From Haloquadratum walsbyi C23 (lineage in GTDB: Archaea > Halobacteriota > Halobacteria > Halobacteriales > Haloferacaceae), in NCBI RefSeq assembly GCF_000237865.1, contig NC_017459.1, positions 1,620,001 through 1,652,000 of the forward strand: DNA of 32,000 nucleotides. The letters run 5' to 3'. The position numbers and the translations under genes are program-made. The notes under the pieces were generated by a model. The model searched no databases, was not told the origin of the DNA, and worked only from the letters and a program-made list of their open reading frames with translations. Within the stretch, counting starts at the first letter, position 1, and each line of letters opens with the position of its first letter. Of the stretch, positions 2,085 through 15,538 are shown one piece after another.

Positions 2085-2386
2085 CAAAGACAGTTGGAAC
2101 ATTGAGTGCCCCCACCCGGGGTCAAACAAACGCAACTCCGTCAGAAAATTGTTCTCGATTTTCACTTCCGCCTATGGGATTTCATCGAAGATAATTTAAG
2201 ATCGAGAGATTGATCTGAAGTAATCATAATTGACCGTTTGTTAAATTATCTTAGGAGCGGCGATAGAGACCCTATTTAAATGAAAGTGACAAAGATTTTT
2301 TCGAAGAACTGGCTCACTACCCACATCTGAGGACATGGTATTGATGTGTGGGGGTTTATCCCGGCATCCGCCCACCGTCTCTACGG

Positions 2387-3913
2387 ATGGATGTAACCGA
2401 AAGCGAAGAGAGCGAGGATCCTTCTCAACCCAGTATCAAGCGAGCACGTGAGTGTCTCTCCTCTGCTATCGCGAATGGATTCAGTAACTCTTCACCAGTG
2501 CTGGTTGACGCGCTTCCTGCTATGGGTAAGAGTCGGGGCGTCATCGAATGGGCGGCGAGTACTGGAAATCCGCTCACGGTTCTGACTGCCAGGCATGAAC
2601 TTTACAATCAATATACAGGTTGGTGTGACGAGCTGAACTTAATCTCGCGAATCCTTCCTTCATTTTATGATGACTGCCCATCTGCGAACGGAACACACGG
2701 AGAAAAATGGGAGAAACGAATAACTCAGATTTACAATCAGAGAGATCTCCTTCCCGGGGAGATACACGATAACGCGCATGAACTTTTTGATGAAGAACTT
2801 CCATGTCAAAAGGGGCACGACTGTTTATATTTCACCCGGCGAGATTTTGATCATACAAAATACGACGTGTTAATTGGTCACTACTCACACTGTTATTCAC
2901 CACAAAACATTGAAGATCGATACGTTGCAATAGACGAGTTCCCACAGGGTAGTTTTCTTTCAGAATATAGCGCCGAAACGGTCGCCGAATCGGTAGGCAA
3001 GTATCTTAATCAGAAAAATGAGTTGCCATTCAATTATCTCAAAGATATCGAAGAAAATCGACGGGATCCCGGAAAGAAACGAAGTGGACTGAAGTGGTTT
3101 ACCGAACACAATCCAGAGATTGAACGTGACTCTCTCAATATCATTGAAAATACTCGGGGCTATCATCCAGAAGCGCCGACAATGACATACGCGATTCTTG
3201 CAGCAGAGGATCTTGATAATCGATGGGAATACACAGATTTTCCTGACGAGCGAGTGGTGATCAATGACCCGAATGACAAGTCGCTAACTCTACTGAGACA
3301 GCCACCGTTCTCTGAAGCCACGAGTGTTATTGCTCTTGACGGAACACCAACCATCGAAAAATGGAAGCTAATGCTGGGCAATGACTTGGAGCATAGCCCT
3401 GTATTGAGCGATGATAAGAAACGGGCATATGTGCGAAAGACGCTCGGCATTCAGATTATCCAAACGACGAACGCAGCGAATCACTACTCAGGGAAATCAG
3501 CTATTTCCGTGACTCCAGAACGAGATATTGTTTTATTTGAGGGAATTGAAAGCCGCGAAAATCAAAAGCCTGCCCTCATTGTCTCACAAGCCGCCGAGGA
3601 AAATTACAGAGAACAAGAGGATCTTTCCGATGTCGTTGACGAGGTTGAACACTATGGGAATATCAAAGGGAGCAATAAGTTTAGTGATGCTCGCGTCGGG
3701 GTCATTTCTGGAAGTCCACATTACGGAGATAACTATATCAAAAAATGGTCTGCTCTCGCCGGGAAGTCTGTCTCTCGTGTCGAACGAACAAAGGGAATGG
3801 GTCAAGACTTCGGCACATTCGGGAATCAGATTCTCCATGGAATGCGTGAGAATGCTGTGCTCCAAGCAGCGATGAGATTTGGGTCTCACTATTCACTGCT
3901 CATTGCTCATTGA
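2387..3913 (+). CDS. uncharacterised P-loop NTPase, helicase-like
   Basis: The ORF is 2348-3913 (GTG start); the first ATG is at 2387 (MDVTESEE...). It has a Walker-A-like LPAMGKSRG and a Walker-B-like YVAIDEFPQ. VIALDGTPT and the C-terminal VLQAAMRFG resemble helicase motifs III and VI. Composition is acidic. I could not name the family by eye. Confidence 0.6.
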   Translation: MDVTESEESEDPSQPSIKRARECLSSAIANGFSNSSPVLVDALPAMGKSRGVIEWAASTGNPLTVLTARHELYNQYTGWCDELNLISRILPSFYDDCPSANGTHGEKWEKRITQIYNQRDLLPGEIHDNAHELFDEELPCQKGHDCLYFTRRDFDHTKYDVLIGHYSHCYSPQNIEDRYVAIDEFPQGSFLSEYSAETVAESVGKYLNQKNELPFNYLKDIEENRRDPGKKRSGLKWFTEHNPEIERDSLNIIENTRGYHPEAPTMTYAILAAEDLDNRWEYTDFPDERVVINDPNDKSLTLLRQPPFSEATSVIALDGTPTIEKWKLMLGNDLEHSPVLSDDKKRAYVRKTLGIQIIQTTNAANHYSGKSAISVTPERDIVLFEGIESRENQKPALIVSQAAEENYREQEDLSDVVDEVEHYGNIKGSNKFSDARVGVISGSPHYGDNYIKKWSALAGKSVSRVERTKGMGQDFGTFGNQILHGMRENAVLQAAMRFGSHYSLLIAH

Positions 3914-4198: not shown

Positions 4199-4403
4199 GT
4201 TGTTTGTTAGCGTACTTCACGTCGGTTAAGTGTTTTCTCTCTCACACTTGTGATCAGCTTCGTTGCAACTCTTGGATGGAATCTGTCAGCTCTATACGCC
4301 GGTCATACGGTATCTAAGTACGATAAAAACAGGCTGAAATGTAATATAGATAATACTACCTAAATTATAATTGAATAGATGTTTGAAACTCAATATTGCT
4401 ATC

Positions 4404-6080
4404 ATGCGAGCTGAATTCCGAAAAATCAGGGATTTATTTACTAAGGGCGGTACTAAATTTGAAGTTCCTGACTATCAACGGGGTTTTGAATGGGAGCGAA
4501 GTCAATTTGAAGATCTTTGGTTCGATATTCAGAGACTTGAAGATACAGAAGACATTCACTATCTTGGTAATATTATACTGCTAAAACAAGACAGCGAATC
4601 ATACGAGATTGTTGATGGACAGCAAAGAATGGTCACGATATCGATTTTTATGATGGCTATTAGGGATATTTTGTGCCAAGATAACCAAGATGATCGGAGG
4701 ATAGAAGATATAATCAATGCTTATCCCTCCGACCAGACCGACCCAGTCAGACGGATTCGTCTTAATGATGACGAAGCAGATGAACACTTTGAGAATCTCT
4801 GGTTGGGAAATAGTGAGAACATAGATGGATCTATCCAAACAGCATATGATTACTTTTTAGATCGATTAAATGATGTTGAACAGGAGAAAATCGAATCGTC
4901 GTTAGTGCCGAAGATTATCAAAAGTTTAAGAATAGTTGAGACTCGCTCAGATACAACAAGTTTAGCGTATATGATATTTCAAAGTCAGAATGAACGTGGT
5001 AAAGACGTTTCACCGGCAATTCTGGCAAAGGCACGGATTTTCGGAGCCGCTGACCGTGAGGAAAGCAGAGAAAGGCAACAAAAAATCACTGGACACTGGA
5101 AGAAAATATATCGGCGACTAAACTCAGAACTTGGCGGGACACGGTTTCATGAAAATACACGTGTGCGGCGGGTACTCAGTCATATATTAATTAATTCTGA
5201 AAGCTCGACACCAGCTCAAATTAGCAAATCCGCTTTTTATCGAACTTTTGATGAAGTAGTTCAGCAAAAAAATGACGTACTTAAGTTTGTCAAGGACATT
5301 GATAATCAAGTTGATACATATTTACAGATTGCAAGCAATGACCTGGATGTTGAGGCACGGGATTTTTCTGATGATGCCAAAAAGAGTCTTCAATACCTGA
5401 ATTCAGCTGCCACCCAAGGAGAGATATTATCACTTTCAATAATAACCAATACCGATGATAACAGACAAAGGGAGGAATTTCTAAGACTGGCTTCAGTTAT
5501 TGGCATGCGGATGCAGCTTGGAGGAGAGAGTTCCAGCGACATACTCGATGCGATTCATGCGGTTGCCAGCGATGTACGGGAATCTGATGACATTCGATCT
5601 ACTCTTCGACGGTCAGTGAGAAATAGAACGCCTGAAGATAGCGAAATAATCGAATATCTAAAAGCAAACTCATTGACTTTAGATGGATCATGGCGATTCC
5701 GGACACTGCTGATTCTTCAGAGCATAGAGAATGGAAGGCGAACTGGAACAAGTCTTGAATTGGGTTCTCTTGATATCGAACACATTGCTCCTCGTCGAAC
5801 GTTCGCAAAGTCAGAGTATGCTGAGTGGAGAATAGGTCTTGATATGGAAGAATTTGAAGAGAATGGCAAACGCGATTGTCTCGGCAATCTGACTTTGTTA
5901 CATAAAAATGACCATTCTGCTATTGACGAAAGTTCCTTTTCCCGAAAAAGTCGAGCATATAGGAATTCGGATATCAAGATTGCACAGGAAATCGCCGATA
6001 TCGATACTTGGAACCACGAAAAAATAGATGAAAGAAGTGAACGATTAGCCAAAGAATTGGTCAATCGATGGAGTATATGA
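4404..6080 (+). CDS. GmrSD-like Type IV restriction endonuclease (DUF262 N-terminal, DUF1524 His-Me C-terminal)
   Basis: DUF262 motifs are VPDYQRGFEWERSQ and IVDGQQR. DUF1524-like motifs are DIEHIAPRR and LGNLTLLHKNDHSAI. The ORF track starts at TTG 4371; the first ATG at 4404 (MRAEFRKI) is the more likely start. Confidence 0.85.
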   Translation: MRAEFRKIRDLFTKGGTKFEVPDYQRGFEWERSQFEDLWFDIQRLEDTEDIHYLGNIILLKQDSESYEIVDGQQRMVTISIFMMAIRDILCQDNQDDRRIEDIINAYPSDQTDPVRRIRLNDDEADEHFENLWLGNSENIDGSIQTAYDYFLDRLNDVEQEKIESSLVPKIIKSLRIVETRSDTTSLAYMIFQSQNERGKDVSPAILAKARIFGAADREESRERQQKITGHWKKIYRRLNSELGGTRFHENTRVRRVLSHILINSESSTPAQISKSAFYRTFDEVVQQKNDVLKFVKDIDNQVDTYLQIASNDLDVEARDFSDDAKKSLQYLNSAATQGEILSLSIITNTDDNRQREEFLRLASVIGMRMQLGGESSSDILDAIHAVASDVRESDDIRSTLRRSVRNRTPEDSEIIEYLKANSLTLDGSWRFRTLLILQSIENGRRTGTSLELGSLDIEHIAPRRTFAKSEYAEWRIGLDMEEFEENGKRDCLGNLTLLHKNDHSAIDESSFSRKSRAYRNSDIKIAQEIADIDTWNHEKIDERSERLAKELVNRWSI

Positions 6081-6124: not shown

Positions 6125-6859
6125 TCATAGATCGGCTTTCGAGAAGATGAGCCGTGCGCTGTTTTCTTTGAGCCATTCCGCGTGTTCCACATACTCGGGA
6201 TGATACTCTGAAACAAGATCCCAGAACGCCTGTGTATGATTCGGTTCACGGAGATGCGCTAATTCGTGGACCACAATATAGTCAATCACATCAGGTGAAG
6301 CCATCATCAACCGCCAATTGAGACCAAGTGTGCCGGACGGAGAGCAACTTCCCCATCTTGTTCGTTGATTCCGAATTTCGATTTGCGTGTACTCAACTCC
6401 CATTTGAGAAGCATACTGCTCGGCACGGTCGGCAAAGTGTTGGCGTGCCTGATTCCGATAGAAATTCTCCAATGCTCGTTTGACCGATGACTGCTTTACT
6501 GCGCTCTGTCGTAATCGAATCGTCTGGTATTGGTCCGTAGCGGACACAGTGTGGGACTGTCGAGATTCAATTACCAACTCGTGCGTTTCCCCAAGATATG
6601 GAAATTCTTCACCAGCTTCAAATGTCCGTTTAGGGGCTTCATCTCGATATGCTTGGTACATTCGTTGTTTTTCCAGCACCCACGAAGCGTTCTCCTTCAG
6701 TAGTTCTGTCGGAAGAGTATCTATTGAGTGAGGCACAACGACCGTCACCCCGTGAATGTCAACATCAATCCGTGGCTCTGATGCCTCTGCACTCCGCCGT
6801 ATCTCGTATTCAACGCTCTTTCCCAGCAACTCAATCTCGCGGAGTTGGACCTCACTCAT
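6125..6859 (-). CDS. DUF45/COG1451 (M48-like) zinc metallohydrolase
   Basis: HELAHLREPNH carries the HExxH zinc motif. The start overlaps the hsdR stop by 8 nt (TATGAGTGA junction), indicating an operon with hsdR. Confidence 0.85.
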   Translation of the reverse strand: MSEVQLREIELLGKSVEYEIRRSAEASEPRIDVDIHGVTVVVPHSIDTLPTELLKENASWVLEKQRMYQAYRDEAPKRTFEAGEEFPYLGETHELVIESRQSHTVSATDQYQTIRLRQSAVKQSSVKRALENFYRNQARQHFADRAEQYASQMGVEYTQIEIRNQRTRWGSCSPSGTLGLNWRLMMASPDVIDYIVVHELAHLREPNHTQAFWDLVSEYHPEYVEHAEWLKENSARLIFSKADL

Positions 6860-9830
6860 ACTGCTCAGCTGTCATCTCGTGATTTTGGATGAGATACTCC
6901 CGTATTGTATCAACGAACTCGTCATTTCCTGCGATGAGACTTCCGAGATCATATTCAACAACAAGCACATCTAACAGGATTCGTTCGATCTCGGAAATTG
7001 TCTGTTGATTTGTTTTCCAGCCATCGAACCCATAGTCAACTCGCTCATAGAACTGCTTAACAATATCTTCGGCAACGGATTCCGCCTGCTCTTCTGACTG
7101 AATCACCTCGCTGGTTTCCTCCGTGAGATGGGTATAAATGGCGAATTCAGCGTCATTCATCCCCTGCTCTTCTGCCTCTTCCTCGATTTCAAGAATTTCT
7201 TCCTCAACCGTTTTTAGCGCTTCAACTGCCTCAGGATCGTCAATTTCGCTTCCTTGCCACTGTGCAACGATGTCTGTCACCCGTTCACTGAGTCGCTTGT
7301 AACGTGGATTCTGGTTTTCACGCGGCTGAAGATGTTCCTGTGTGGCATGAGCAATCTGTGATGCCTTCACTGACGGATTCTCTGGTTCGTCTTCTTCTTC
7401 CAGATACTCTTCTCCGAGCTTGTATGTTGGAAAGTCACTTTTCACCTGTTCTATTGCGACGTTTTCACTCACTATCTTTCGGGTCTTCTCCCGCATATCT
7501 TCTTCAGGGTTATTCTCGCCACTGGTCGTCCGCTTGAACGCAACATGAATCCGACTCAGCCATTTATATCGCCTATCAATATCTTCTTGAACTAACCGAC
7601 CATCAGGTGCGACTGCCTCATAGAGATCCTGTAATTGACGGAACCCTCGTTTGAATTCACGTCGAGTTGGATGTGTCAGCACTCGCTCCACTGCCTCAGT
7701 CGTTGCCTCACTGGAGTCGGTCTTTGGAATCCCATCAAATATCTCCATTACGAACTCCAACTGGTCAACGAGATCATCAAACAGCTCGTCTTTGTCACGA
7801 GCGGCGTTTGCCTGTGTCTTCGTATCGTAATCGAGAGCGTCGTCAATGTTCTCAAAGACGCCTTGGAAATCGACAATCTCGCCATTCTCTTTCCCGTCTG
7901 CTGGTCGATTTGTTCGGGCAATTGCCTGCATCAGGTTGTGATTCTTCAAATTACGGTCGAGGTAGATCGTCTTCAAGACTGGAGCATCAAATCCGGTCAA
8001 GAGCATGTTATGAACGACCAGCAACTTCGGATTATCTTCATCCTTGAACTCATTGACTATCGAATCGCGCTCCTCTGAATCGGTATGGAATTGCTGGATG
8101 AGGTCGGAGTCGTCTTTTGTCGAGGTATAGAGAACTTCAACCTCCTCCTCACTCCGAAGCTCTATGAGTCGTTCACCATACATCGCTGCCGACTGACGAC
8201 TGGAAGTAACGACCATTCCCTTCCAGCCGTTTGGAGCAACGGAGTCGTCATAGTGCTGGTCAATCACTTCAACCGCTTTCTGTACCCGTGGCTCAATCTC
8301 AGCCAACATTCTCGACGTTACCTTCTCACGAATAACCGCCCGCTTCTCGTCCGTACTCAGTCCGCGGAACTGCTCTTCAAACTCCTCGTCAAGTCCTGAC
8401 TCATCTATCTGCCATTTCATTTCGTGGCGGAGCGTGAAGTACACAGGAAGAATTAATTCATCATCTATGCCTTCTTTCACTGAATAGCGATGAAGATAGT
8501 TTTCATCCTCTGGGGAGAACTCATCAAAGGTGTTTTTATCTTTCTCTCGCTCTCCTTCTCGAACGGGTGTGCCAGTGAAGCCAAAGTGAGTACAATCAGG
8601 TAAAGCGGCATCCAATCGACTCCCGAGGTCAGCCTCCATAAATCGGTGAGCCTCATCAGACATTACCACAACTTCGTCGTTGCCCTGTACGTCGGGATCC
8701 ACGTCTTGGAATTTTTGAACAGTGGTCAGAACGAGTTCGCTCTGTCCTTGCTTGATGAGTTCCTGTAAATGTTCGATACTCTCAGCTTCTTTCCACGCCT
8801 CTAAGGAGAGGTTCGTCAACTGATCCCGCATCTGGCTATTCAGCTTGTCTGTATCGACAATGATGAAAACCTGTGGATTACGGGCAACGTCTCGATCTAA
8901 CAGGTTCTCCGCCGCATACAACATCGTGAACGACTTGCCTGACCCTTGTGTGTGCCAAATAAGTCCCCGGTCGTGTTTGTCGCGATCAACCCGTCCCAAC
9001 ATCTCATTGACTGCGTAGTACTGCATATGCCGTGGAATAATCTTGGCGTTTCCACCCGCTCGTCGTTCGTAGAATACGAAGTTCTTGAGAATATCAAGGA
9101 GCGTTTGTGGGTTGCAAAGTGCCTGTATCGCCTGTTTGGGGTCGTGATCGTCTACAAACTCTTCTGGGGCATCATTCCACGGCTCATAGAACTCTTTCGA
9201 CGCTCCAACTGCACCGTATCTGAACTCTCGTGTATCCGCTGCGACATTGAATAGCGTCGGCACGAATAATCGAGGGAGGTCCTCTTCGTATGCCTGTAGG
9301 TCACTGACGGCGTTGTACCAATCGTTATCCTGTGCAACGCTTTTGAGTTCCATCGTCACCAGCGGGATCCCGTTGACAAACAGGTTCACGTCGGGACGGA
9401 TCGTCGTTTCACGAGAGACAGAAAACTGATTCAGAGCATGGAAGCGATTGTTCTCTGGGTTCTCATAATCAATCAGATCGACGTAGACCGTCCGGCTGGC
9501 ACTTCCGTTCTGCTTGACTGAGAATGTCTTGCCTTTGGTCAGTAACTCGTGGAAGGATTCGTTCCCATCCATCAGGTTCTCAACGTCAAGATCACGCTTG
9601 AGTGAGGAGATGAATTTCTCGACGTTCTCTTCTGTTAGGCAGTCGTTGATTGCGACGAGCTGTTCAGCCAGTAGGTCCCAGTAAATTACTTCATTGCTTC
9701 GGCGTTCGTATTCTGTATCAAGTACGGTCGCTCCTCGGCTTCCGTCCTGTCCGTGTGCTTCCCAACCGACGGCGTCAAGCCACGAGAGAAGCGAGCGTTC
9801 GATGCCGCCTTCGTTGGGGACGCTAACCAT
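6852..9830 (-). CDS. hsdR: Type I restriction enzyme R subunit
   Basis: 992 aa. The N-terminal nuclease motif is D..VNGIPLVTMELK. Helicase motif I is TQGSGKS and motif II is MSDEAHR. The long C-terminal domain is acidic. It overlaps both neighbours by 8 nt. Confidence 0.95.
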   Translation of the reverse strand: MVSVPNEGGIERSLLSWLDAVGWEAHGQDGSRGATVLDTEYERRSNEVIYWDLLAEQLVAINDCLTEENVEKFISSLKRDLDVENLMDGNESFHELLTKGKTFSVKQNGSASRTVYVDLIDYENPENNRFHALNQFSVSRETTIRPDVNLFVNGIPLVTMELKSVAQDNDWYNAVSDLQAYEEDLPRLFVPTLFNVAADTREFRYGAVGASKEFYEPWNDAPEEFVDDHDPKQAIQALCNPQTLLDILKNFVFYERRAGGNAKIIPRHMQYYAVNEMLGRVDRDKHDRGLIWHTQGSGKSFTMLYAAENLLDRDVARNPQVFIIVDTDKLNSQMRDQLTNLSLEAWKEAESIEHLQELIKQGQSELVLTTVQKFQDVDPDVQGNDEVVVMSDEAHRFMEADLGSRLDAALPDCTHFGFTGTPVREGEREKDKNTFDEFSPEDENYLHRYSVKEGIDDELILPVYFTLRHEMKWQIDESGLDEEFEEQFRGLSTDEKRAVIREKVTSRMLAEIEPRVQKAVEVIDQHYDDSVAPNGWKGMVVTSSRQSAAMYGERLIELRSEEEVEVLYTSTKDDSDLIQQFHTDSEERDSIVNEFKDEDNPKLLVVHNMLLTGFDAPVLKTIYLDRNLKNHNLMQAIARTNRPADGKENGEIVDFQGVFENIDDALDYDTKTQANAARDKDELFDDLVDQLEFVMEIFDGIPKTDSSEATTEAVERVLTHPTRREFKRGFRQLQDLYEAVAPDGRLVQEDIDRRYKWLSRIHVAFKRTTSGENNPEEDMREKTRKIVSENVAIEQVKSDFPTYKLGEEYLEEEDEPENPSVKASQIAHATQEHLQPRENQNPRYKRLSERVTDIVAQWQGSEIDDPEAVEALKTVEEEILEIEEEAEEQGMNDAEFAIYTHLTEETSEVIQSEEQAESVAEDIVKQFYERVDYGFDGWKTNQQTISEIERILLDVLVVEYDLGSLIAGNDEFVDTIREYLIQNHEMTAEQYE

Positions 9831-11187
9831 GTTGGGCGATTTCGTCGGGCACCTCTATGTTAGTGTCGGTTGTTCTGACTTTCCCCGAGGAGAGGTCTTG
9901 CATGAGTCCCCGTTTTATTCGACTTAATCGCTCCGCAATTTCTTGTTCTTTCTCAATCTCCTCATTTACATTGTCGAGAATTTCGACAACTTTCTCCTGG
10001 ATTTCTATTGGTGGAATCGGAATTGGTAGTCTTCTCATTGAGCCAATATTGAAGTTATTTTGCCCACCCCCTGCTTTCCAGGCGTCAATAAAGCCAATCG
10101 CCTTTTTTGAGTTTATATAGTATTGTAAATATTTTGAAAGTATTTTATTACCCGGGCGAGATATTATCAATGAGAAGCAATTGCCCCCGGCATATTCTTC
10201 ATTAACTACACAACTTTCTCCAAGATTCACACCTGTGCGAACGGTAAGAACATCCCCTTCGTTAAGAATAGATTTCGAATTCTGCTCATTGAATCTTTTT
10301 GAGATATATCTGAGGGAAGAGTCGTCAATGCCGTGTTCACGAACATTCTTTGAGCGAACAAATGGCACCCCGTCATCCGAATTAACATAATGTTCTGTGG
10401 CTCCTGAAACAATACCAACGGTAATCTCGTCACAGACTTCAGAGGCAGATCTAATTTCCCAACTACTTGACACTTCACCAATTCGCGTTTCTTTTGTATC
10501 CTGTTCATTTGATAGCCCGGTAGCAAATATGTCTTGTTTCACCCCAAGCTTTATATTTGATAAAGAATTAATGGCTTTTTGAGTTTTCTCGATCGCCTGG
10601 TCAACCGTGTAGAGTACGGTGGCGATTTTCCGCTGTTCCGACAGAGGGGGAGTAAGAAACTGTAAATCTGGGAAAAAGTCCAACTGGATTGATGGATGAG
10701 TACTCCCAATCCCCAGCCGTTCCAATTCTGGCTGACACCACTGGAAAATATACATAAGAAAATATGGATTAGACAGGTCTGGATAACACTCAAAAGTAAC
10801 AGTACTTTGGTCGGTCGCCATCTCTCGATTAAGAATAGCTGATTCACCTATTGAACCCGTTCGGCATAACGCTAAAGCCCCTTCTGGTATCAGCTTAGCT
10901 CCAGAGTTGGCTAAACCCTCTTCAGTTATGTTATCCTCAGTTTCGTCTATCTCTACAGTATCAAGTCCTGAAAGGTCGTGTATGGCTATCCACGGAATAT
11001 TACCATTCCAGTACTCGTCTGTATCCGTCGAAGGAGTATGTCCTGTTTTTATCTTAGTAATACTATTAGCACCTGCTACATCCCATCCAGATGGAAGTTG
11101 TTCTGCCCTTGTCAGTACGCTTGGACTACGAAAGTTGACTCCTGTCTCCTGATTAGCAATATCGTTGAGCTTCGTTTGTTCACTCAT
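9823..11187 (-). CDS. hsdS: Type I R-M specificity subunit (distal copy, two TRDs)
   Basis: 454 aa. The central conserved region is PPLSEQRKIATVLYTVDQAIEKT. The C-terminal conserved region is RIKRGLMQDLSSGKVRTTD. The stop overlaps the hsdR start. Confidence 0.9.
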   Translation of the reverse strand: MSEQTKLNDIANQETGVNFRSPSVLTRAEQLPSGWDVAGANSITKIKTGHTPSTDTDEYWNGNIPWIAIHDLSGLDTVEIDETEDNITEEGLANSGAKLIPEGALALCRTGSIGESAILNREMATDQSTVTFECYPDLSNPYFLMYIFQWCQPELERLGIGSTHPSIQLDFFPDLQFLTPPLSEQRKIATVLYTVDQAIEKTQKAINSLSNIKLGVKQDIFATGLSNEQDTKETRIGEVSSSWEIRSASEVCDEITVGIVSGATEHYVNSDDGVPFVRSKNVREHGIDDSSLRYISKRFNEQNSKSILNEGDVLTVRTGVNLGESCVVNEEYAGGNCFSLIISRPGNKILSKYLQYYINSKKAIGFIDAWKAGGGQNNFNIGSMRRLPIPIPPIEIQEKVVEILDNVNEEIEKEQEIAERLSRIKRGLMQDLSSGKVRTTDTNIEVPDEIAQHG

Positions 11188-11262
11188 AATTCAGTGCCTC
11201 CATATGCTGGGTCATCTGAGCCTCGATTTCGTCCCTCCTTCCCGTTGTCCAAGTCTCGAAAG
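11180..11262 (-). pseudogene. remnant of an hsdM 3' end fused to the start of the distal hsdS
   Basis: 11179-11229 matches 12684-12734 (the true hsdM 3' end / hsdS start) with about 3 mismatches in about 51 nt by eye. It translates to ...DEIEAQMTQHMEALNYE*, the same C-terminal peptide as HsdM. An in-frame stop lies upstream and there is no start. Confidence 0.7.
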
Positions 11263-11325
11263 CTCACAAGGGTATGATCGAACAAGAGGAATATAGAATA
11301 TCTCACAGTCTTTTTGAATGTAGCA

Positions 11326-12690
11326 TTAACCATGCTGTGCGACTTCCTGTGGAACATCTATATTCACGTCGGTCGTTCGGACTTCGCCTGAGAGGAGGTC
11401 TTGCATAAGTGCCCGTTTGAGACGTTGGAGTCGATCTTTTTTATTTTTCTCAGAACTAATTTTATCATCCATGGCTGACAACGATTCAGCTATTTTATTC
11501 TGTTCTTTTTTGCTTGGTCTAAATACTTTGGATGATCTCACAAACTCCATGGGAGCCATGTTCTTCATCGCTGAGCCTCTTGAACTCAGAACAAGTTGCC
11601 TTTGTCCGACTTTTGACTCTAAAAAGTATTTCATATAATTTACATTGAATAAATCGTCGTTGACTGAAAACTTGAGCAGCGCCTGATTTATTACACCCTG
11701 TTCATACTCTGAAGGCACTTTTGCAACCTTCCCTAATGTACCAGAGCAACTTATCAGCAGGTCGTCTTCCTCAACACTAAATCGCTCCATATCACGGTAT
11801 TTTTCTTTTGTAATATAGTAATCCCCATAATCAAATTCATCATATATTACATTCTGTTGCTGATATACTTTGTATCCTGAATCAACGAAAATTTCCTTTT
11901 TTAACATTCCACCAAACGGTCCTCTTCTGAGCCCGTTTTCCCCCTCTTTAGAGGATACTATCGTCTCAATTTCCCATTCTGCTGGCTTTGAATATATGAA
12001 AGCACCAATCCTAATATTTTCATAGCTCTCGTGATTGTAATACCCATCGAGGAACAAGTCATCCAACAGACCGCACTTCACTCTTTTTGTTTGATTGATG
12101 ATTTCTTCAGTCTTCTGAATCGCTTGGTCAACGGTGTGGAGGACGGTGGCGATTTTGCGCTGTTCTGAGAGTGGAGGGATAGCAATCTCTAACACTCCAA
12201 ACCGAGATGTATTCAAGTTTATTTGAGTACTTCCAGGTGCAAGAGATTTCAAGTAATTTTGTTGCCAGCTGATGTACTCATACAGATAATGTGGGTTCAA
12301 ATCATTCTCATAGTCTCGTAAAATGAGCCAACCGTCGTGAACACAAGATCTTGTCCCAGCGAACATCGGATAGCCACAAGTCCCACTATTGCTGACTAAA
12401 AGCGTCCCTGAATCAACTAATTTGCTCTTCTCAGCACCCTTTTCAGTAACAGTATCCTCTGTTTCTCCCGTGTATTTCTGGCTCTTCACATCCACGTCCC
12501 CAATTTTTATCCACGGGATGTCTCCCCCAAACAACTCAGGGTCGCCCTTCGGACGTGGTGACGCTCCCCGAGTGATTTCCATAATTTCATCAGCTTGATT
12601 CATATCCCACCTTTTAGCCAAAGAAGACTCATTCGAGGCTTTTGACTCACTAAATTCAGAAAACTCATCCAACGTCGCATCTTCACTCAT
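11326..12690 (-). CDS. hsdS: Type I R-M specificity subunit (proximal copy, two TRDs)
   Basis: 454 aa. The conserved regions are PPLSEQRKIATVLHTVDQAIQKT and RLKRALMQDLLSGEVRTTD. The TRDs look unrelated to those of the other copy. The start overlaps the hsdM stop by 8 nt. The stop is followed by an ATGGTTAA relic of the hsdR start. Confidence 0.9.
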   Translation of the reverse strand: MSEDATLDEFSEFSESKASNESSLAKRWDMNQADEIMEITRGASPRPKGDPELFGGDIPWIKIGDVDVKSQKYTGETEDTVTEKGAEKSKLVDSGTLLVSNSGTCGYPMFAGTRSCVHDGWLILRDYENDLNPHYLYEYISWQQNYLKSLAPGSTQINLNTSRFGVLEIAIPPLSEQRKIATVLHTVDQAIQKTEEIINQTKRVKCGLLDDLFLDGYYNHESYENIRIGAFIYSKPAEWEIETIVSSKEGENGLRRGPFGGMLKKEIFVDSGYKVYQQQNVIYDEFDYGDYYITKEKYRDMERFSVEEDDLLISCSGTLGKVAKVPSEYEQGVINQALLKFSVNDDLFNVNYMKYFLESKVGQRQLVLSSRGSAMKNMAPMEFVRSSKVFRPSKKEQNKIAESLSAMDDKISSEKNKKDRLQRLKRALMQDLLSGEVRTTDVNIDVPQEVAQHG

Positions 12691-14212
12691 AATTCAGAGC
12701 CTCCATATGCTGGGTCATCTGAGCCTCAATATCATTTCGCTCTGCCTGTAACTCCCGTAACTTTGCTAACTCATCTTCAACGTCAATATCCTCCTCTGGT
12801 TCGGTCGTATCGACGTACAAAGCGATGTTCAGGTTGTAGTCGTTCTCTCGGATCTCGTCCATTCTGACTGTCCGACTCACCCGTTCTTCTGTCGTCCAGT
12901 CTCGGAAGTTCCCAACGATGTGGTCAAGCCCCTCCTCAGTGAGCTGATTCTGGTTCGAGAGTTCGTCATAAAAGTCCTCATCAGCGGCGTGAATGAACTG
13001 CACCTCGCCCTCTCTATCAGTTGGCTTGTCGGTGTTCAGCACAAGGACAGCGGACGGAATCGAATTATTCTGAAAGAGGTTCTCGGGAAGTCCGACAATC
13101 GCCTCCAACATATCATTCTCCAACATCGGCTTCCGGTATCGCTGTTCGTGCTTTCTGAATAAAACGCCATGAGGAATCACAATAGATGCTTTCCCAGCTT
13201 CCCCGTCCTGATCGGGTCTTTTCAGTTGTTTTGCGATGTGCATGATGAAGGCGTAGTCACCGCGGTCAGCTCGGGGAAGTTTCTTATGCCAGTCAAAACG
13301 GTCGTATGGATCATCCTGAAGTTCGTCTTTCGCCCAGTCTGCGGAGAACGGGAAATTAGCGAGCACTCGATTGAAGCGGGCAACTGAGTTATCTGATTCG
13401 TCGGTAAATTGCGGATCAGCGAGTGAGTCCTCCCGTTCAATCTCTCCGTTGAGTCCGTGAATGGAGAGATTCATTTTGGCGATGGCGGCAATATCAGGGT
13501 TGATTTCTTGTCCTGTAAATTTCAGTTTTTTCGGCTCGCCGTTCTGCTCTTCACGGTAGTACCGAGCCGCCTCGATGAGCATCCCGCCGGAACCAACAGT
13601 CGGATCGTGGAAGTCGTGTCCATCCTCAAATTCATCAACAAGCCGAACACACAGGTTGACAATTTGTGGCGGGGTAAAGAACTGCCCACCAGACTTGCCC
13701 TCCTCCTCTGCGAAGTGGCGAACCAAGTCCATATACGCCTCACCGAGCATATCTGGCGGGACGCTGTCTGTATCTAAGTCGTATTTCGAGAGGTGTTCAA
13801 CGAGCCGTCCAAGTCGATCATCACCGAGAGCGTCTGCGTCGATGTAATCAGCTCGGAAGACGCCTCTTAATTCAGGGTTTACCTCAACGAGTGCGTCGAA
13901 ACTCTCGTTGAGTGCCTCGTCCACGTTATCACTGACCGCTCGAACGTCCTCCCACATGTACCCATCTGGTATAACAGGAATATCGTAGAGATTCTCACGA
14001 CGAGCGAACTCCTCACCATACTCTTCAAGATTCTCCTGATACTGCTTATCAAACTCATCGGAGATAGCTTTGTAATAGACAAGCGGAAGAATGTACTCTT
14101 TATAATCAGTCGAGTCAACTGCATCGCGGATAATATCAGCACACTTGAACAGGTGCGAGTCGATTTCATCAAGAGATACAGACATATGAGATAAATCTAT
14201 GTCCCTGTTCAA
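12683..14212 (-). CDS. hsdM: Type I R-M N6-adenine DNA methyltransferase subunit
   Basis: 509 aa. The AdoMet motif is DPTVGSGGML and the catalytic motif is NFPF (LANFPFSADW). The N-terminal HsdM domain is present. Confidence 0.95.
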   Translation of the reverse strand: MNRDIDLSHMSVSLDEIDSHLFKCADIIRDAVDSTDYKEYILPLVYYKAISDEFDKQYQENLEEYGEEFARRENLYDIPVIPDGYMWEDVRAVSDNVDEALNESFDALVEVNPELRGVFRADYIDADALGDDRLGRLVEHLSKYDLDTDSVPPDMLGEAYMDLVRHFAEEEGKSGGQFFTPPQIVNLCVRLVDEFEDGHDFHDPTVGSGGMLIEAARYYREEQNGEPKKLKFTGQEINPDIAAIAKMNLSIHGLNGEIEREDSLADPQFTDESDNSVARFNRVLANFPFSADWAKDELQDDPYDRFDWHKKLPRADRGDYAFIMHIAKQLKRPDQDGEAGKASIVIPHGVLFRKHEQRYRKPMLENDMLEAIVGLPENLFQNNSIPSAVLVLNTDKPTDREGEVQFIHAADEDFYDELSNQNQLTEEGLDHIVGNFRDWTTEERVSRTVRMDEIRENDYNLNIALYVDTTEPEEDIDVEDELAKLRELQAERNDIEAQMTQHMEALNYE

Positions 14213-14402
14213 GTAGTCTGTGGTAAAATGAACGAGAGTGAACAGGAAGATACCAGCACCGACGAATCAAGTGCGATTGAAATGGATTGACGGAGATGCG
14301 AACGCAAAGAGTTGTAGTTAATGCCAATTCCGCCCTCCTTTTGTCGTTGATACTTTTAGAACGAACAGTGGTAACGCTACTTATCGAGATACTGGCTGCG
14401 CC

Positions 14403-14425: not shown

Positions 14426-15457
14426 CTACAACTTATCAGCCCACTCCATTTGTCGATCTCGTCGGTCTTCCTCAGTTGGCGTATCATAATGCTTCTTCAA
14501 CACCTCCGTCGTTGCATCCACCCTATCCCCAATCGTATCAAAATCAGCCCCCTTATTACGCATATAAGTCACAAACCCCGCCCGAACACTATGAGGTGAA
14601 ACCGAATCCGGGCACTTTGAAGCGTGATTGTAACTCGTCCAATCACATTTCTCCGGGTCTTTATCTATCGGACACTCCATACCAATATAACACGGCTCAG
14701 TAATTCTATATATATTTCTTTGAATCGTCGATTTTTGTGGTCGCCCGTTTTTGGTTGCAACAAGCGGCTTTCTATTTTCATCATCAACAACACTGGGTCG
14801 AGTTTCCTCAATATAATCAGAAAGAAGCTCACCAACATTCCCGGAAACAGGCACTTCCCGTTCTCCCCAACGGTTATTTTTCAACGGTGTTCCTGTCTGT
14901 GGACGATTTTTGAATTTAATCACAGGTCGTTCGTACTCGTCAGGATAGAAGTCTCTGAGATCGAGTGCCCGAATACCACCAGTGCGAGCGCCGGTTTTCC
15001 ACATCAAGGTAAACAAAGCGTGTCGCAACGAAGCATACTCGTATTTGCTCAGGTACTTTTCGATAGCTGTTGCGTGTTCAGAGTGAAGGGCAACTTTTCG
15101 AGCTTGTTGTCGTTTATTTGCTGTTGGAACTTTGACTTTTTTTGCAAGCCCGCTTACAACAGCGTTAATTGCTTCCCATTCTTCGACAGCCAACCGGAAT
15201 GTTCTCATTGAGTTTTCAAGCGTGGTTGGGGCAACGTTTTCTTGTCGGTGGGCAAGATATTCGCGGCACATTCTGCTGTCGAGATCGTTGAGGTTTTCAA
15301 GTTCAACGTCGGGAAGGTCAGTCCATTCGAGAAAACGGTTGAGGCGACAGGTGTGTTCGTAGATAGTTGATTGGGAAAGTTCTGATTCCCGGCTTTGCAA
15401 GTACATTTGAACGCCTTCTTGTGGAGTCAGTGGTTCAAGTCCGTGGATTCGGGTCAT
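14426..15457 (-). CDS. tyrosine recombinase / phage-type integrase
   Basis: The catalytic signature is ARTGGIRALDL (Arg), HSVRAGFVTYM (HxxR) and LKKHY (Tyr). The N-terminal SAM-like domain is present. The ORF extends to 15502, but MTRIHGLEPLTPQEG at 15457 is the likely start. Confidence 0.9.
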   Translation of the reverse strand: MTRIHGLEPLTPQEGVQMYLQSRESELSQSTIYEHTCRLNRFLEWTDLPDVELENLNDLDSRMCREYLAHRQENVAPTTLENSMRTFRLAVEEWEAINAVVSGLAKKVKVPTANKRQQARKVALHSEHATAIEKYLSKYEYASLRHALFTLMWKTGARTGGIRALDLRDFYPDEYERPVIKFKNRPQTGTPLKNNRWGEREVPVSGNVGELLSDYIEETRPSVVDDENRKPLVATKNGRPQKSTIQRNIYRITEPCYIGMECPIDKDPEKCDWTSYNHASKCPDSVSPHSVRAGFVTYMRNKGADFDTIGDRVDATTEVLKKHYDTPTEEDRRDRQMEWADKL

Positions 15458-15538
15458 GGGAATAATGATTTGGCTCCGGGAGTAGGTACAGGAAGGTGGC
15501 AAAGTTGCGGTTATGGAGCGAACTATGTGAGCGACAGA

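Follow-up and report, generated by a model that had tools for sequence, protein, structure and literature searches.

How does a Type I restriction-modification (R-M) operon come to carry two complete specificity genes in direct tandem, and are both of them put to use with one set of modification and restriction subunits? This question is raised by a minus-strand operon of the square salt-pond archaeon Haloquadratum walsbyi C23. It lies in a stretch of 32,000 nucleotides (nt) of the chromosome (NC_017459.1, positions 1,620,001 to 1,652,000), called the window in the following; all positions refer to this whole stretch. We consider it fairly probable that the tandem originated from an unequal crossover, that the linker between the two hsdS genes serves as a relay for translation, and that both HsdS are likely to work with one set of M and R subunits.

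According to the open reading frame (ORF) map of the window, the gene order on the minus strand is hsdM, hsdS-A, a 138-nt linker, hsdS-B, hsdR and ygjP. The core of the operon consists of:

12683 to 14212, minus strand: hsdM (rmeM); TTG start of the ORF at 14212, probable true ATG start at 14185
11326 to 12690, minus strand: hsdS-A, proximal specificity gene, 454 amino acids; Methylase_S 1.2e-34 in two stretches; exact match to CCC40456/WP_014556073
11188 to 11325, minus strand: inter-cassette linker, 138 nt; apparently the scar of a decayed hsdR'-'hsdM fusion
9823 to 11187, minus strand: hsdS-B, distal specificity gene, 454 amino acids; Methylase_S 3.2e-41 in two stretches; exact match to CCC40455/WP_014556072
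6852 to 9830, minus strand: hsdR (rmeR), 992 amino acids; exact match to CCC40454

Identity of the operon

Operon layout and coordinates had been given in a preliminary description of this DNA. The ORFs were found exactly as described there, and HsdM, two HsdS with two target recognition domains (TRDs) each, and HsdR were assigned with Pfam, NCBIfam and PADLOC. HsdM was recognised by N6_Mtase PF02384 (1.7e-79), HsdM_N PF12161 (1.1e-21), TIGR00497 hsdM and PADLOC MTase_I (3e-97); for the start call, the proteins of relatives align from residue 6-10 onward. HsdR contains HSDR_N (2.3e-41), SWI2_SNF2 (3.5e-56), ResIII and T1RH-like_C and scored above the cut-off of TIGR00348 (2.4e-149). With HsdM, a two-TRD HsdS and an HsdR composed of nuclease and SF2 translocase, the three defining components of a Type I system are present. 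Therefore the locus was filed as such: it is a Type I R-M operon rmeM-rmeS-rmeS-rmeR-ygjP. Assignment to another defence system was rejected, as MADS-like matches were far below the cut-offs and the Type I models were far stronger (NCBIfam, PADLOC).

HsdR, HsdS-B and HsdS-A are exactly CCC40454, CCC40455 and CCC40456 of H. walsbyi DSM 16854, which is C23 (chromosome of 3,148,033 bp). Both S genes are already named RmeS in the database annotation. The tandem rmeS pair is not discussed in the C23 genome paper (PMC3119063).

The two hsdS genes

HsdS-A and HsdS-B both have exactly 454 amino acids and match PADLOC Specificity_I end to end, but are only 32% identical overall. Identity reaches 55-59% in the central and C-terminal conserved regions and is low in TRD1 (30%) and TRD2 (24%); the TRDs are different, in line with the earlier remark that they look unrelated. 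The approximate sub-parts are:

hsdS-A, minus strand: TRD1 12187-12615; central conserved region 12055-12186; TRD2 11497-12054; C-terminal conserved region 11329-11496
hsdS-B, minus strand: TRD1 10660-11097; central conserved region 10528-10659; TRD2 9994-10527; C-terminal conserved region 9826-9993

At the DNA level 54 of the 66 nt of the central core (10585-10650) are identical between the genes (82%), and 76 of 99 (77%) in the whole block. The preliminary description had put the shared regions at 80-85%. This figure is correct for the central core and too high for the C-terminal 100 nt, for which 72% was found (77% over 92 nt). Both hsdS genes are intact and co-oriented, and together they encode four different TRDs. 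Since the central and C-terminal conserved helices are retained, each HsdS should be able to assemble with the same HsdM and HsdR.

hsdS-A ends with a TAA stop and a C-terminus of the 'non-terminal' type. The same C-terminus, ...VNIDVPQEVAQHG with minor variants and a TAA stop, was seen in other cassettes that are followed by a linker (11326-11430 compared with 9823-9927 in C23; also L056, L059 and L013; loci are cited by number). Cassettes adjoining hsdR have the family-consensus C-terminus with a TAG stop. Hence the C-terminus of hsdS appears to travel with the linker and not with the TRDs.

Anatomy of the linker

Three parts were recognised in and around the linker, listed in the direction of transcription:

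11270 to 11333, minus strand: hsdR-start relic; its ATG (11333-11331) overlaps the hsdS-A stop and is followed by about 60 nt of strongly decayed hsdR 5' sequence
11244 to 11269, minus strand: internal hsdM fragment, SFRDLDNG compared with NFRDWTTEER of HsdM; about 210-235 nt before the hsdM stop
11180 to 11242, minus strand: terminal hsdM 3' relic; includes a GGAGG box 10-14 nt before the hsdS-B ATG

The terminal relic is the clearest of them. Its last part (11180-11230) is identical to the end of hsdM (12683-12733) in 48 of 51 nt, and a 49-nt pattern with at most 3 mismatches matched these two sites only, with 0 matches expected from shuffles. The similarity to hsdM noticed in the preliminary description is therefore real. 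The relic encodes the same end of HsdM, ...EIEAQMTQHMEALNYE with its stop, across the hsdS-B ATG, as had been noticed before; in tblastn 16 of 20 codons were identical. About 3 mismatches in 51 nt had been counted correctly, but the relic does not extend to 11262: the contiguous homology ends sharply at about 11233-11242. Beyond this point, the internal fragment matches 12890-12915 without gaps in 17 of 26 positions, a value reached by 29 of 5000 shuffles. The homologous segment of a second linker type, found in the environmental locus L056, matches hsdM over 47 nt at 83%.

The other end of the linker begins with ATGGTTAA directly after hsdS-A. It equals the overlapping hsdS-stop/hsdR-start junction of the whole haloarchaeal family, with the family-wide consensus CA(G/A)(C/T)ATGGTTA(G/A), and so the relic of an hsdR start proposed earlier at this place was found again. 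The in-register translation, MVNATFKKTVRYSIFLLFDH..., is identical to HsdR N-termini in 8 of 34 positions, including the conserved S13, D19 and D29. This similarity was reached by 8 of 3000 shuffles when scored as protein and by 7 of 3000 when scored as DNA identity. The linker gave no match in an Rfam search at E <= 1. It contains no T run longer than 3 and no oligo-T terminator.

Taken together, the linker appears to be a hsdR'-'hsdM fusion with an internal deletion of about 150 nt, and the description as two full-length hsdS cassettes in direct tandem that carry remnants of the hsdM 3' end and of an hsdR start holds. A fusion of this kind in fresh, undecayed form is present in locus L041 of another haloarchaeon, compared with which the linker of C23 is an older version. 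There, about 52 hsdR codons (MASIPSELGVERSVLSWLDGVGW...) are joined in frame to about 70 C-terminal codons of hsdM (...EIEAQMTQHMEALNYE and stop) between two hsdS genes, and the fusion overlaps both neighbours as a normal gene does. Judged by its sequence, the L041 junction corresponds to that expected from an unequal crossover between two hsdMSR operons. The breakpoints differ, and the fusion of L041 is independent of that of C23. The hsdR origin of the linker start in C23 is adopted because of the analogy to L041 and the conserved ATG junction.

The relay ORF and its probable role in translational coupling

The linker is bridged by a reading frame:

11184 to 11333, minus strand: relay ORF, 49 codons (MVNATF...GGTEL and stop); 8-nt overlap with hsdS-A, 4-nt overlap with the hsdS-B ATG (ATGA)

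It starts at the ATG in the position of the hsdR start and ends with the TGA inside the ATGA of hsdS-B. For this reason the statement that the distal gene has lost its coupling to hsdM, made in the preliminary description, was too strong, as the 49-codon ORF leads from the hsdS-A stop to the hsdS-B ATG. Once the relay ORF is counted, stop and start codons overlap at every junction of the operon. The overlap comprises 8 nt at hsdM/hsdS-A (TGA stop of hsdM and ATG of hsdS-A, ATGAGTGA), at hsdS-A/relay ORF, at hsdS-B/hsdR (TAG stop of hsdS-B and ATG of hsdR, ATGGTTAG) and at hsdR/ygjP, and 4 nt (ATGA) between the relay ORF and hsdS-B.

In the C23 linker the relay frame has 0 internal stops, the other two frames 2 and 3. 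Uninterrupted ORFs that correspond to it were found in L059 (48 codons, overlapping its neighbours by 8 nt on either side), the second linker of L056 (50 codons) and L041 (about 122 codons). The ATG frame of all four linkers is free of internal stops, and the other two frames contain 1-8. It has stayed open despite indels of 1, 7 and 8 nt, which change the frame used in the part derived from hsdM. When the linker interior was shuffled, the frame remained open in 10% (C23) and 8% (L056) of the trials. Taken together, the open relay frames suggest selection. A homology search with the relay ORF yielded one match only (P0243, leading to L059); thus, called relay ORFs are of low prevalence or rarely annotated.

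In Haloferax volcanii, termination-reinitiation coupling needs overlaps and is nearly abolished by gaps of about 20 nt, and short overlaps are enriched among the subunits of heteromeric complexes (PMC10666635, PMC6728339). A translated bridge is therefore a plausible reason for the conservation of the scar.

Related and environmental loci

For comparison, loci of nine reference genomes were used together with 42 loci from metagenomes; their HsdM is 56-86% identical to that of C23. These loci have the order hsdM-hsdS-hsdR-ygjP with a single hsdS (about 48-50 loci); L041 is the exception. The environmental contigs that bear on the tandem are:

L001 (JGI 3300042629): 100% identical to hsdS-A plus most of the linker
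L011 (JGI 3300042583): one cassette; hsdM allele (88% to C23) leads directly into hsdS-B (99.3% over 11235..9703) and hsdR
L013 (JGI 3300038322): hsdM allele (84%); unrelated TRD1, then TRD2, C-terminus and linker of hsdS-A (99.5%)
L012, L057, L058 (JGI and NCBI): other hsdS alleles before an hsdR 96.5-97% identical
L056 (JGI 3300042583): linker into the 5' half of hsdS-B (97%); another TRD2 and an A-type C-terminus; a second linker of 137 nt; the start of a further hsdS
L059 (JGI 3300042629; found via the relay-ORF protein): hsdM 3' end, hsdS (452 amino acids), linker of 131 nt, hsdS (462 amino acids) and hsdR on one contig

The most informative of them is L059. All of its four TRDs are unrelated to those of C23, yet the linker block is 87.6% (MAFFT) or 89.3% (blastn) identical, compared with 85% for the flanking hsdM and 79% for hsdR. 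The relic and the start of the distal hsdS are 100% identical over 61 nt to the hsdM end and hsdS-A start of C23, which indicates that the junction repeats do exchange. Since a C23-like linker (88-89%) joins wholly different TRDs in L059, the idea of a single cassette captured once in C23 was abandoned; rather, the tandem architecture is old, shared and maintained while the TRDs turn over. The hsdS genes of all arrays encode 452-462 amino acids.

In environmental contigs of the Haloquadratum type the number of cassettes varies from one to two and probably three or more. The one-cassette and chimeric versions that the preliminary description had proposed to look for in the environment were found in L011, L013 and L056. 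The hsdS-B of C23 differs from the L011 copy in 4 nt, 3 changes being synonymous and 1 non-synonymous. In L013 the switch from the unrelated TRD1 to hsdS-A sequence lies at the central conserved region. Independent confirmation of the linker/hsdS-B junction comes from L056. Its second linker (1456-1592; about 65-75% identical to the linker of C23) runs into another hsdS start, so that this array probably has at least three cassettes.

This second linker also contains a T6 run (TTTATTTTTTGG), which is not present in the linker of C23. It could be a partial archaeal terminator between the cassettes of that array.

Hybrids of the predicted types A-TRD1+B-TRD2 or B-TRD1+A-TRD2 were not detected among 240 retrieved homologues. 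A metagenome scan with an exact 28-mer from the middle of the linker gave 0 matches in a collection that does not include the source of L001.

Further changes were seen at the hsdS/hsdR junction of single-hsdS loci. In L002 (12841-13175), L010 (12760-13094) and L030 a small hydrophobic ORF of about 110 codons (MVSDQGLNYAKGNLLAGPRQWKRMY...) is located between hsdS and hsdR and starts on the overlapping ATGGTTAG junction. In L009 (Halomicrobium katesii, 12814-14319), hsdS is followed by a 19-codon hsdR 5' relic, an insert of about 1.45 kb with an ORF on the opposite strand and an intact hsdR, a further rearrangement at this junction. In the metagenome locus L016, hsdS and hsdR are about 770 nt apart (2800-3568).

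Recombination substrates and the tyrosine recombinase

Within C23, the hsdM end and its relic share an exact run of 29 nt (47 of 49 nt identical). The exact runs shared by the central and C-terminal hsdS repeats are only 14 and 12 nt long. Thus, the favoured deletion in C23 would remove hsdS-A and the linker precisely, and formation of the hybrid A-TRD1+B-TRD2 should be rare. The earlier proposal that deletion between the direct repeats generates hybrid specificities is therefore a poor bet in C23. The long repeats between the two hsdS genes are all direct. Inverted hsdS repeats were not found; the sole inverted pairs are 14-22 nt long with 71-86% complementarity and do not pair the conserved regions of hsdS.

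A tyrosine recombinase gene is located next to hsdM and had not been mentioned in the preliminary description:

14426 to 15502, minus strand: tyrosine recombinase/integrase; Phage_integrase 1.3e-7

The match to Phage_integrase is weak and Xer-like models scored far below their cut-offs. Homologues (35-41% identical, same strand) were found upstream of five single-hsdS loci (L006, L020, L025/L044, L028). Among the loci whose upstream flank is long enough, about one in four has such a gene before hsdM, which suggests that the hsdMSR-ygjP module often travels on integrative elements. Most loci of the family, including ones with 7-10 kb of upstream flank, have no homologue. The recombinase of C23 looks like an island integrase and probably stands outside the R-M mechanism. 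Its interpretation as a shufflon recombinase was rejected as the principal explanation in view of its border position, of the homologues at single-hsdS loci and of the scores of the Xer models. Between the two hsdS genes only the linker is present; no toxin-antitoxin-like ORF was seen, and the recombinase lies outside the array.

Proposed origin and function

According to the model that we prefer, an unequal crossover took place between two hsdMSR operons carrying different hsdS alleles. The first hsdR codons, downstream of one hsdS, were thereby joined to the stretch of approximately 250 nt that ends hsdM, upstream of the other hsdS. The hsdR'-'hsdM fusion was then trimmed to about 135 nt by an internal deletion, and the linker has since been inherited and exchanged together with the cassettes. 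This origin of the tandem is shown by the sequence of the locus. The preliminary description had assumed capture of a cassette by recombination at the conserved operon junctions. Recombination is retained; insertion at the junctions is not, as the fusion point lies about 250 nt before the hsdM stop.

We infer expression of both hsdS genes, two methylation motifs and a function of the relay from the sequence of the operon. A single transcript would yield both HsdS by successive coupled translation, in which the relay ORF preserves the overlaps hsdM > hsdS-A > relay > hsdS-B > hsdR > ygjP. Termination and reinitiation via the relay ORF could deliver ribosomes to the distal hsdS, and the linker may have been kept because of its relay ORF. 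Each HsdS is predicted to form M2S and R2M2S complexes with the shared subunits. In this way two bipartite motifs would be methylated in the genome, and restricted in foreign DNA, from one M/R set.

Several points weigh against this model. In C23 itself the hsdR origin of the first approximately 60 nt of the linker is only weakly indicated by similarity. The open relay frame is modestly improbable for each linker (about 0.1) and the linkers share ancestry, so that selection on the frame is suggestive rather than proven. Among the environmental loci, the 257-nt hsdM of L011 could in principle be a long relic and not a real hsdM. Chimerism of the metagenome contigs is possible at the central conserved region, in which co-occurring alleles have identical stretches of 49-64 nt. 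Chimeras would affect the mosaics of L013 and L056 and the inference of at least three cassettes; the second linker type and the finished sequence of C23 are unaffected. A literature search retrieved no Haloquadratum methylome paper, and the only transcriptome is that of strain HBSQ001.

Four other explanations were weighed against the preferred model. The distal hsdS might be driven by its own promoter in the linker, for example at the conserved AT-rich box TTCTATATTCC, with the open frame as a leftover of the fusion; this also counts against the relay. An AT-rich block does occupy the same linker position in C23, L059, L001 and L013 (TTGTTTATTTTTT in the second linker of L056), an open frame is about 10% likely without selection, and the GGAGG box could support independent initiation. 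Nevertheless, no element like the transcription factor B recognition element (BRE) was identified in the linker, to which no archaeal promoter model was applied. Moreover, three diverged linkers have kept the frame open in spite of indels that shift it, with the other two frames closed, and all other junctions of the operon are 8-nt overlaps, so that the operon seems to rely on coupling. We regard a linker promoter as doubtful; it does not exclude the coupled translation proposed above and is compatible with it. Alternatively, one hsdS could be a silent or poorly expressed reserve copy, with one working specificity at a time and the second gene of use only as a source for recombination. Direct coupling to hsdM is lacking for the distal gene, and the 138-nt gap follows hsdS-A. 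There are also parallels: it is not known which of the two hsdS of Moraxella catarrhalis locus 1 is used (PMC6241649), and BlihIA gave a single motif despite two hsdS genes (PMC12429846). Yet both genes of C23 have full length, two TRDs and normal conserved regions, and their start contexts are proper; the distal one keeps the GGAGG box and the relay ORF behind a linker without a terminator-like T run. Furthermore, arrays with entirely different TRDs keep both genes intact, the synonymous changes in hsdS-B outnumber the non-synonymous one, and the silent copies of known shufflons are usually partial and inverted, which those of C23 are not. A reserve copy is thus unlikely.

Programmed shuffling, in which the adjacent tyrosine recombinase excises and reintegrates hsdS cassettes via direct repeats as TvrR does at tvr (SpnIV), appears very unlikely to us. 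It would fit the position of the recombinase gene directly upstream of hsdM on the same strand, the direct repeats flanking the cassettes and the environmental variation in cassette number and content, and excision-reintegration at direct repeats has a precedent (PMC6265443). But the recombinase is located at the border of defence island and core genes, outside the repeats, and its homologues precede single-hsdS loci while they are missing from most loci of the family. The excised segment of tvr includes the recombinase together with a toxin-antitoxin pair, and nothing similar is present in C23; besides, the repeats are only 77% identical, except for the hsdM end and its relic. That the tandem is an assembly artefact, stringing together two alleles of a mixed population, is scarcely credible. 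Short-read assemblies do break at these repeats, and L001 and L013 end in or near the linker. However, the window matches the finished genome of a pure culture. The linker is unique and both of its sides are confirmed, by L001 (hsdS-A into linker) and L056 (linker into hsdS-B), which overlap in 11248-11283; L059 spans a whole homologous array in one contig.

Comparison with known multi-hsdS systems

Two full-length hsdS genes in one Type I locus were described for M. catarrhalis locus 1 (S1/S2.Mca25240ORF1547P; PMC6241649). [quoted passage not shown] In C23, the genes are directly adjacent and co-oriented within the hsdM-hsdR interval, the host is an archaeon and the cassette number varies in the population. 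The conserved hsdR'-'hsdM linker with its bridging ORF is a further difference; a comparable linker is not described in the passages of PMC6241649 that were considered.

SpnD39III/ivr and the shufflons of Streptococcus suis (PMC7394358) resemble the C23 locus in having several hsdS per locus, recombination at conserved hsdS regions and often a tyrosine recombinase nearby. SpnD39III-like systems have inverted repeats and partial, silent hsdS' copies, and express one specificity at a time. In contrast, the copies of C23 are direct, complete and probably co-expressed; neither matching inverted repeats nor partial or promoter-less extra copies were found. A REBASE survey (Atack et al. 2020) reported duplicated hsdS with inverted repeats in about 4-6% of Type I loci; its text does not mention archaea (PMC7394358). 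Because only inverted repeats were searched, the survey would not flag the C23 locus.

The pneumococcal tvr locus (SpnIV) likewise has hsdS segments with direct repeats, and the order and number of its cassettes vary between strains (PMC6265443). There, the excised circle contains the recombinase and the toxin-antitoxin pair, and each mobile unit is a segment with a single TRD (PMC6265443). In C23 the units are whole hsdS genes plus linker, the recombinase is found at the island border, beyond the array, and a recombinase/toxin-antitoxin module between direct repeats was not found. As defining features of both classes were looked for and not found, the C23 locus stands outside the inverting and the tvr classes.

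An extra hsdS in the operon, a half gene beside a full-length one and co-expressed or co-purified with the M/R subunits, is known from BlihIA of Bacillus licheniformis and from Staphylococcus xylosus (PMC12429846, PMC10030836). The extra gene has one TRD and one motif was seen (PMC12429846, PMC10030836), whereas both genes of C23 have two TRDs.

Several specificities from shared catalytic subunits are reportedly also obtained in Staphylococcus aureus Sau1, with two hsdMS units and one hsdR, and with plasmid-borne hsdS of Lactococcus. These extra hsdS genes are said to be found at distant loci or to be carried by plasmids and to have expression signals of their own; unlike those of C23, they are not chained in one operon. 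In the StySQ and EcoR124I/II class, hybrid specificities are said to arise by recombination or unequal crossing-over within hsdS, which changes a single gene. Conserved central regions are crossover points there as well, and the breakpoints of L013 and L056 lie in this region. In C23, however, the founding crossover linked hsdR 5' to hsdM 3' sequence, and an entire gene was gained.

No description was found in the literature of complete hsdS genes in direct tandem that are connected through a conserved hsdR'-'hsdM linker with a bridging ORF. The same applies to a polymorphism in the number of hsdS cassettes (1, 2, 3 or more) and to the occurrence of such arrays in archaea.

Neighbouring genes

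Further genes of the operon and its surroundings are:

6125 to 6859, minus strand: YgjP-like metallopeptidase gene; PF01863 1.1e-59; overlaps the hsdR stop by 8 nt
4371 to 6080, plus strand: GmrSD-type Type IV restriction gene; PF03235 and PF07510; PADLOC Orf5 E = 0; convergent with the R-M operon
2348 to 3913, plus strand: ORF of 521 amino acids upstream of the GmrSD-type gene; no Pfam or PADLOC match; stretch of low GC content (0.39-0.45)

ygjP follows hsdR in nearly all related haloarchaeal loci (also in L002-L054) and therefore behaves as if it were the fourth gene of the operon. The core metabolic genes panD, DHDPS, ADH, TenA and a solute symporter were identified to the right of the recombinase. 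Since they begin directly after the recombinase, the R-M operon lies in a defence island with the integrase at its border; R-M operon, GmrSD-type gene, 521-residue ORF and integrase form this island adjoining the core genes.

Significance

A change of Type I specificity is usually thought to result from swaps of TRDs within one hsdS or from inversion of silent copies. The C23 locus suggests a third, additive route, in which whole hsdS genes are stacked and a recycled fusion scar keeps them translationally linked. Tentatively, and at somewhat less than an even chance, we generalise this to an expandable, non-inverting array hsdM-(hsdS-linker)n-hsdS-hsdR with n = 0, 1 or at least 2 in Haloquadratum populations. 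All of its cassettes would be co-expressed, so that several specificities would be enforced simultaneously by one M/R set, in contrast to phase-variable shufflons. The linker of about 135 nt would have been co-opted as translational relay, and such arrays would have arisen independently at least twice in haloarchaea, in the Haloquadratum lineage and in L041. Surveys for inverted hsdS repeats only miss this class of multi-specificity loci. The linker itself offers a natural test case for the overlap-dependent translational coupling of haloarchaea.

Haloquadratum is dominant in salterns although the viral pressure there is heavy. Provided that both subunits are made, a single M/R set would defend the cell against DNA lacking either of two methylation patterns. 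Strains that differ in the number or content of their cassettes would then be different 'immunotypes', which would bear on virus-host dynamics and on barriers to gene flow in Haloquadratum.

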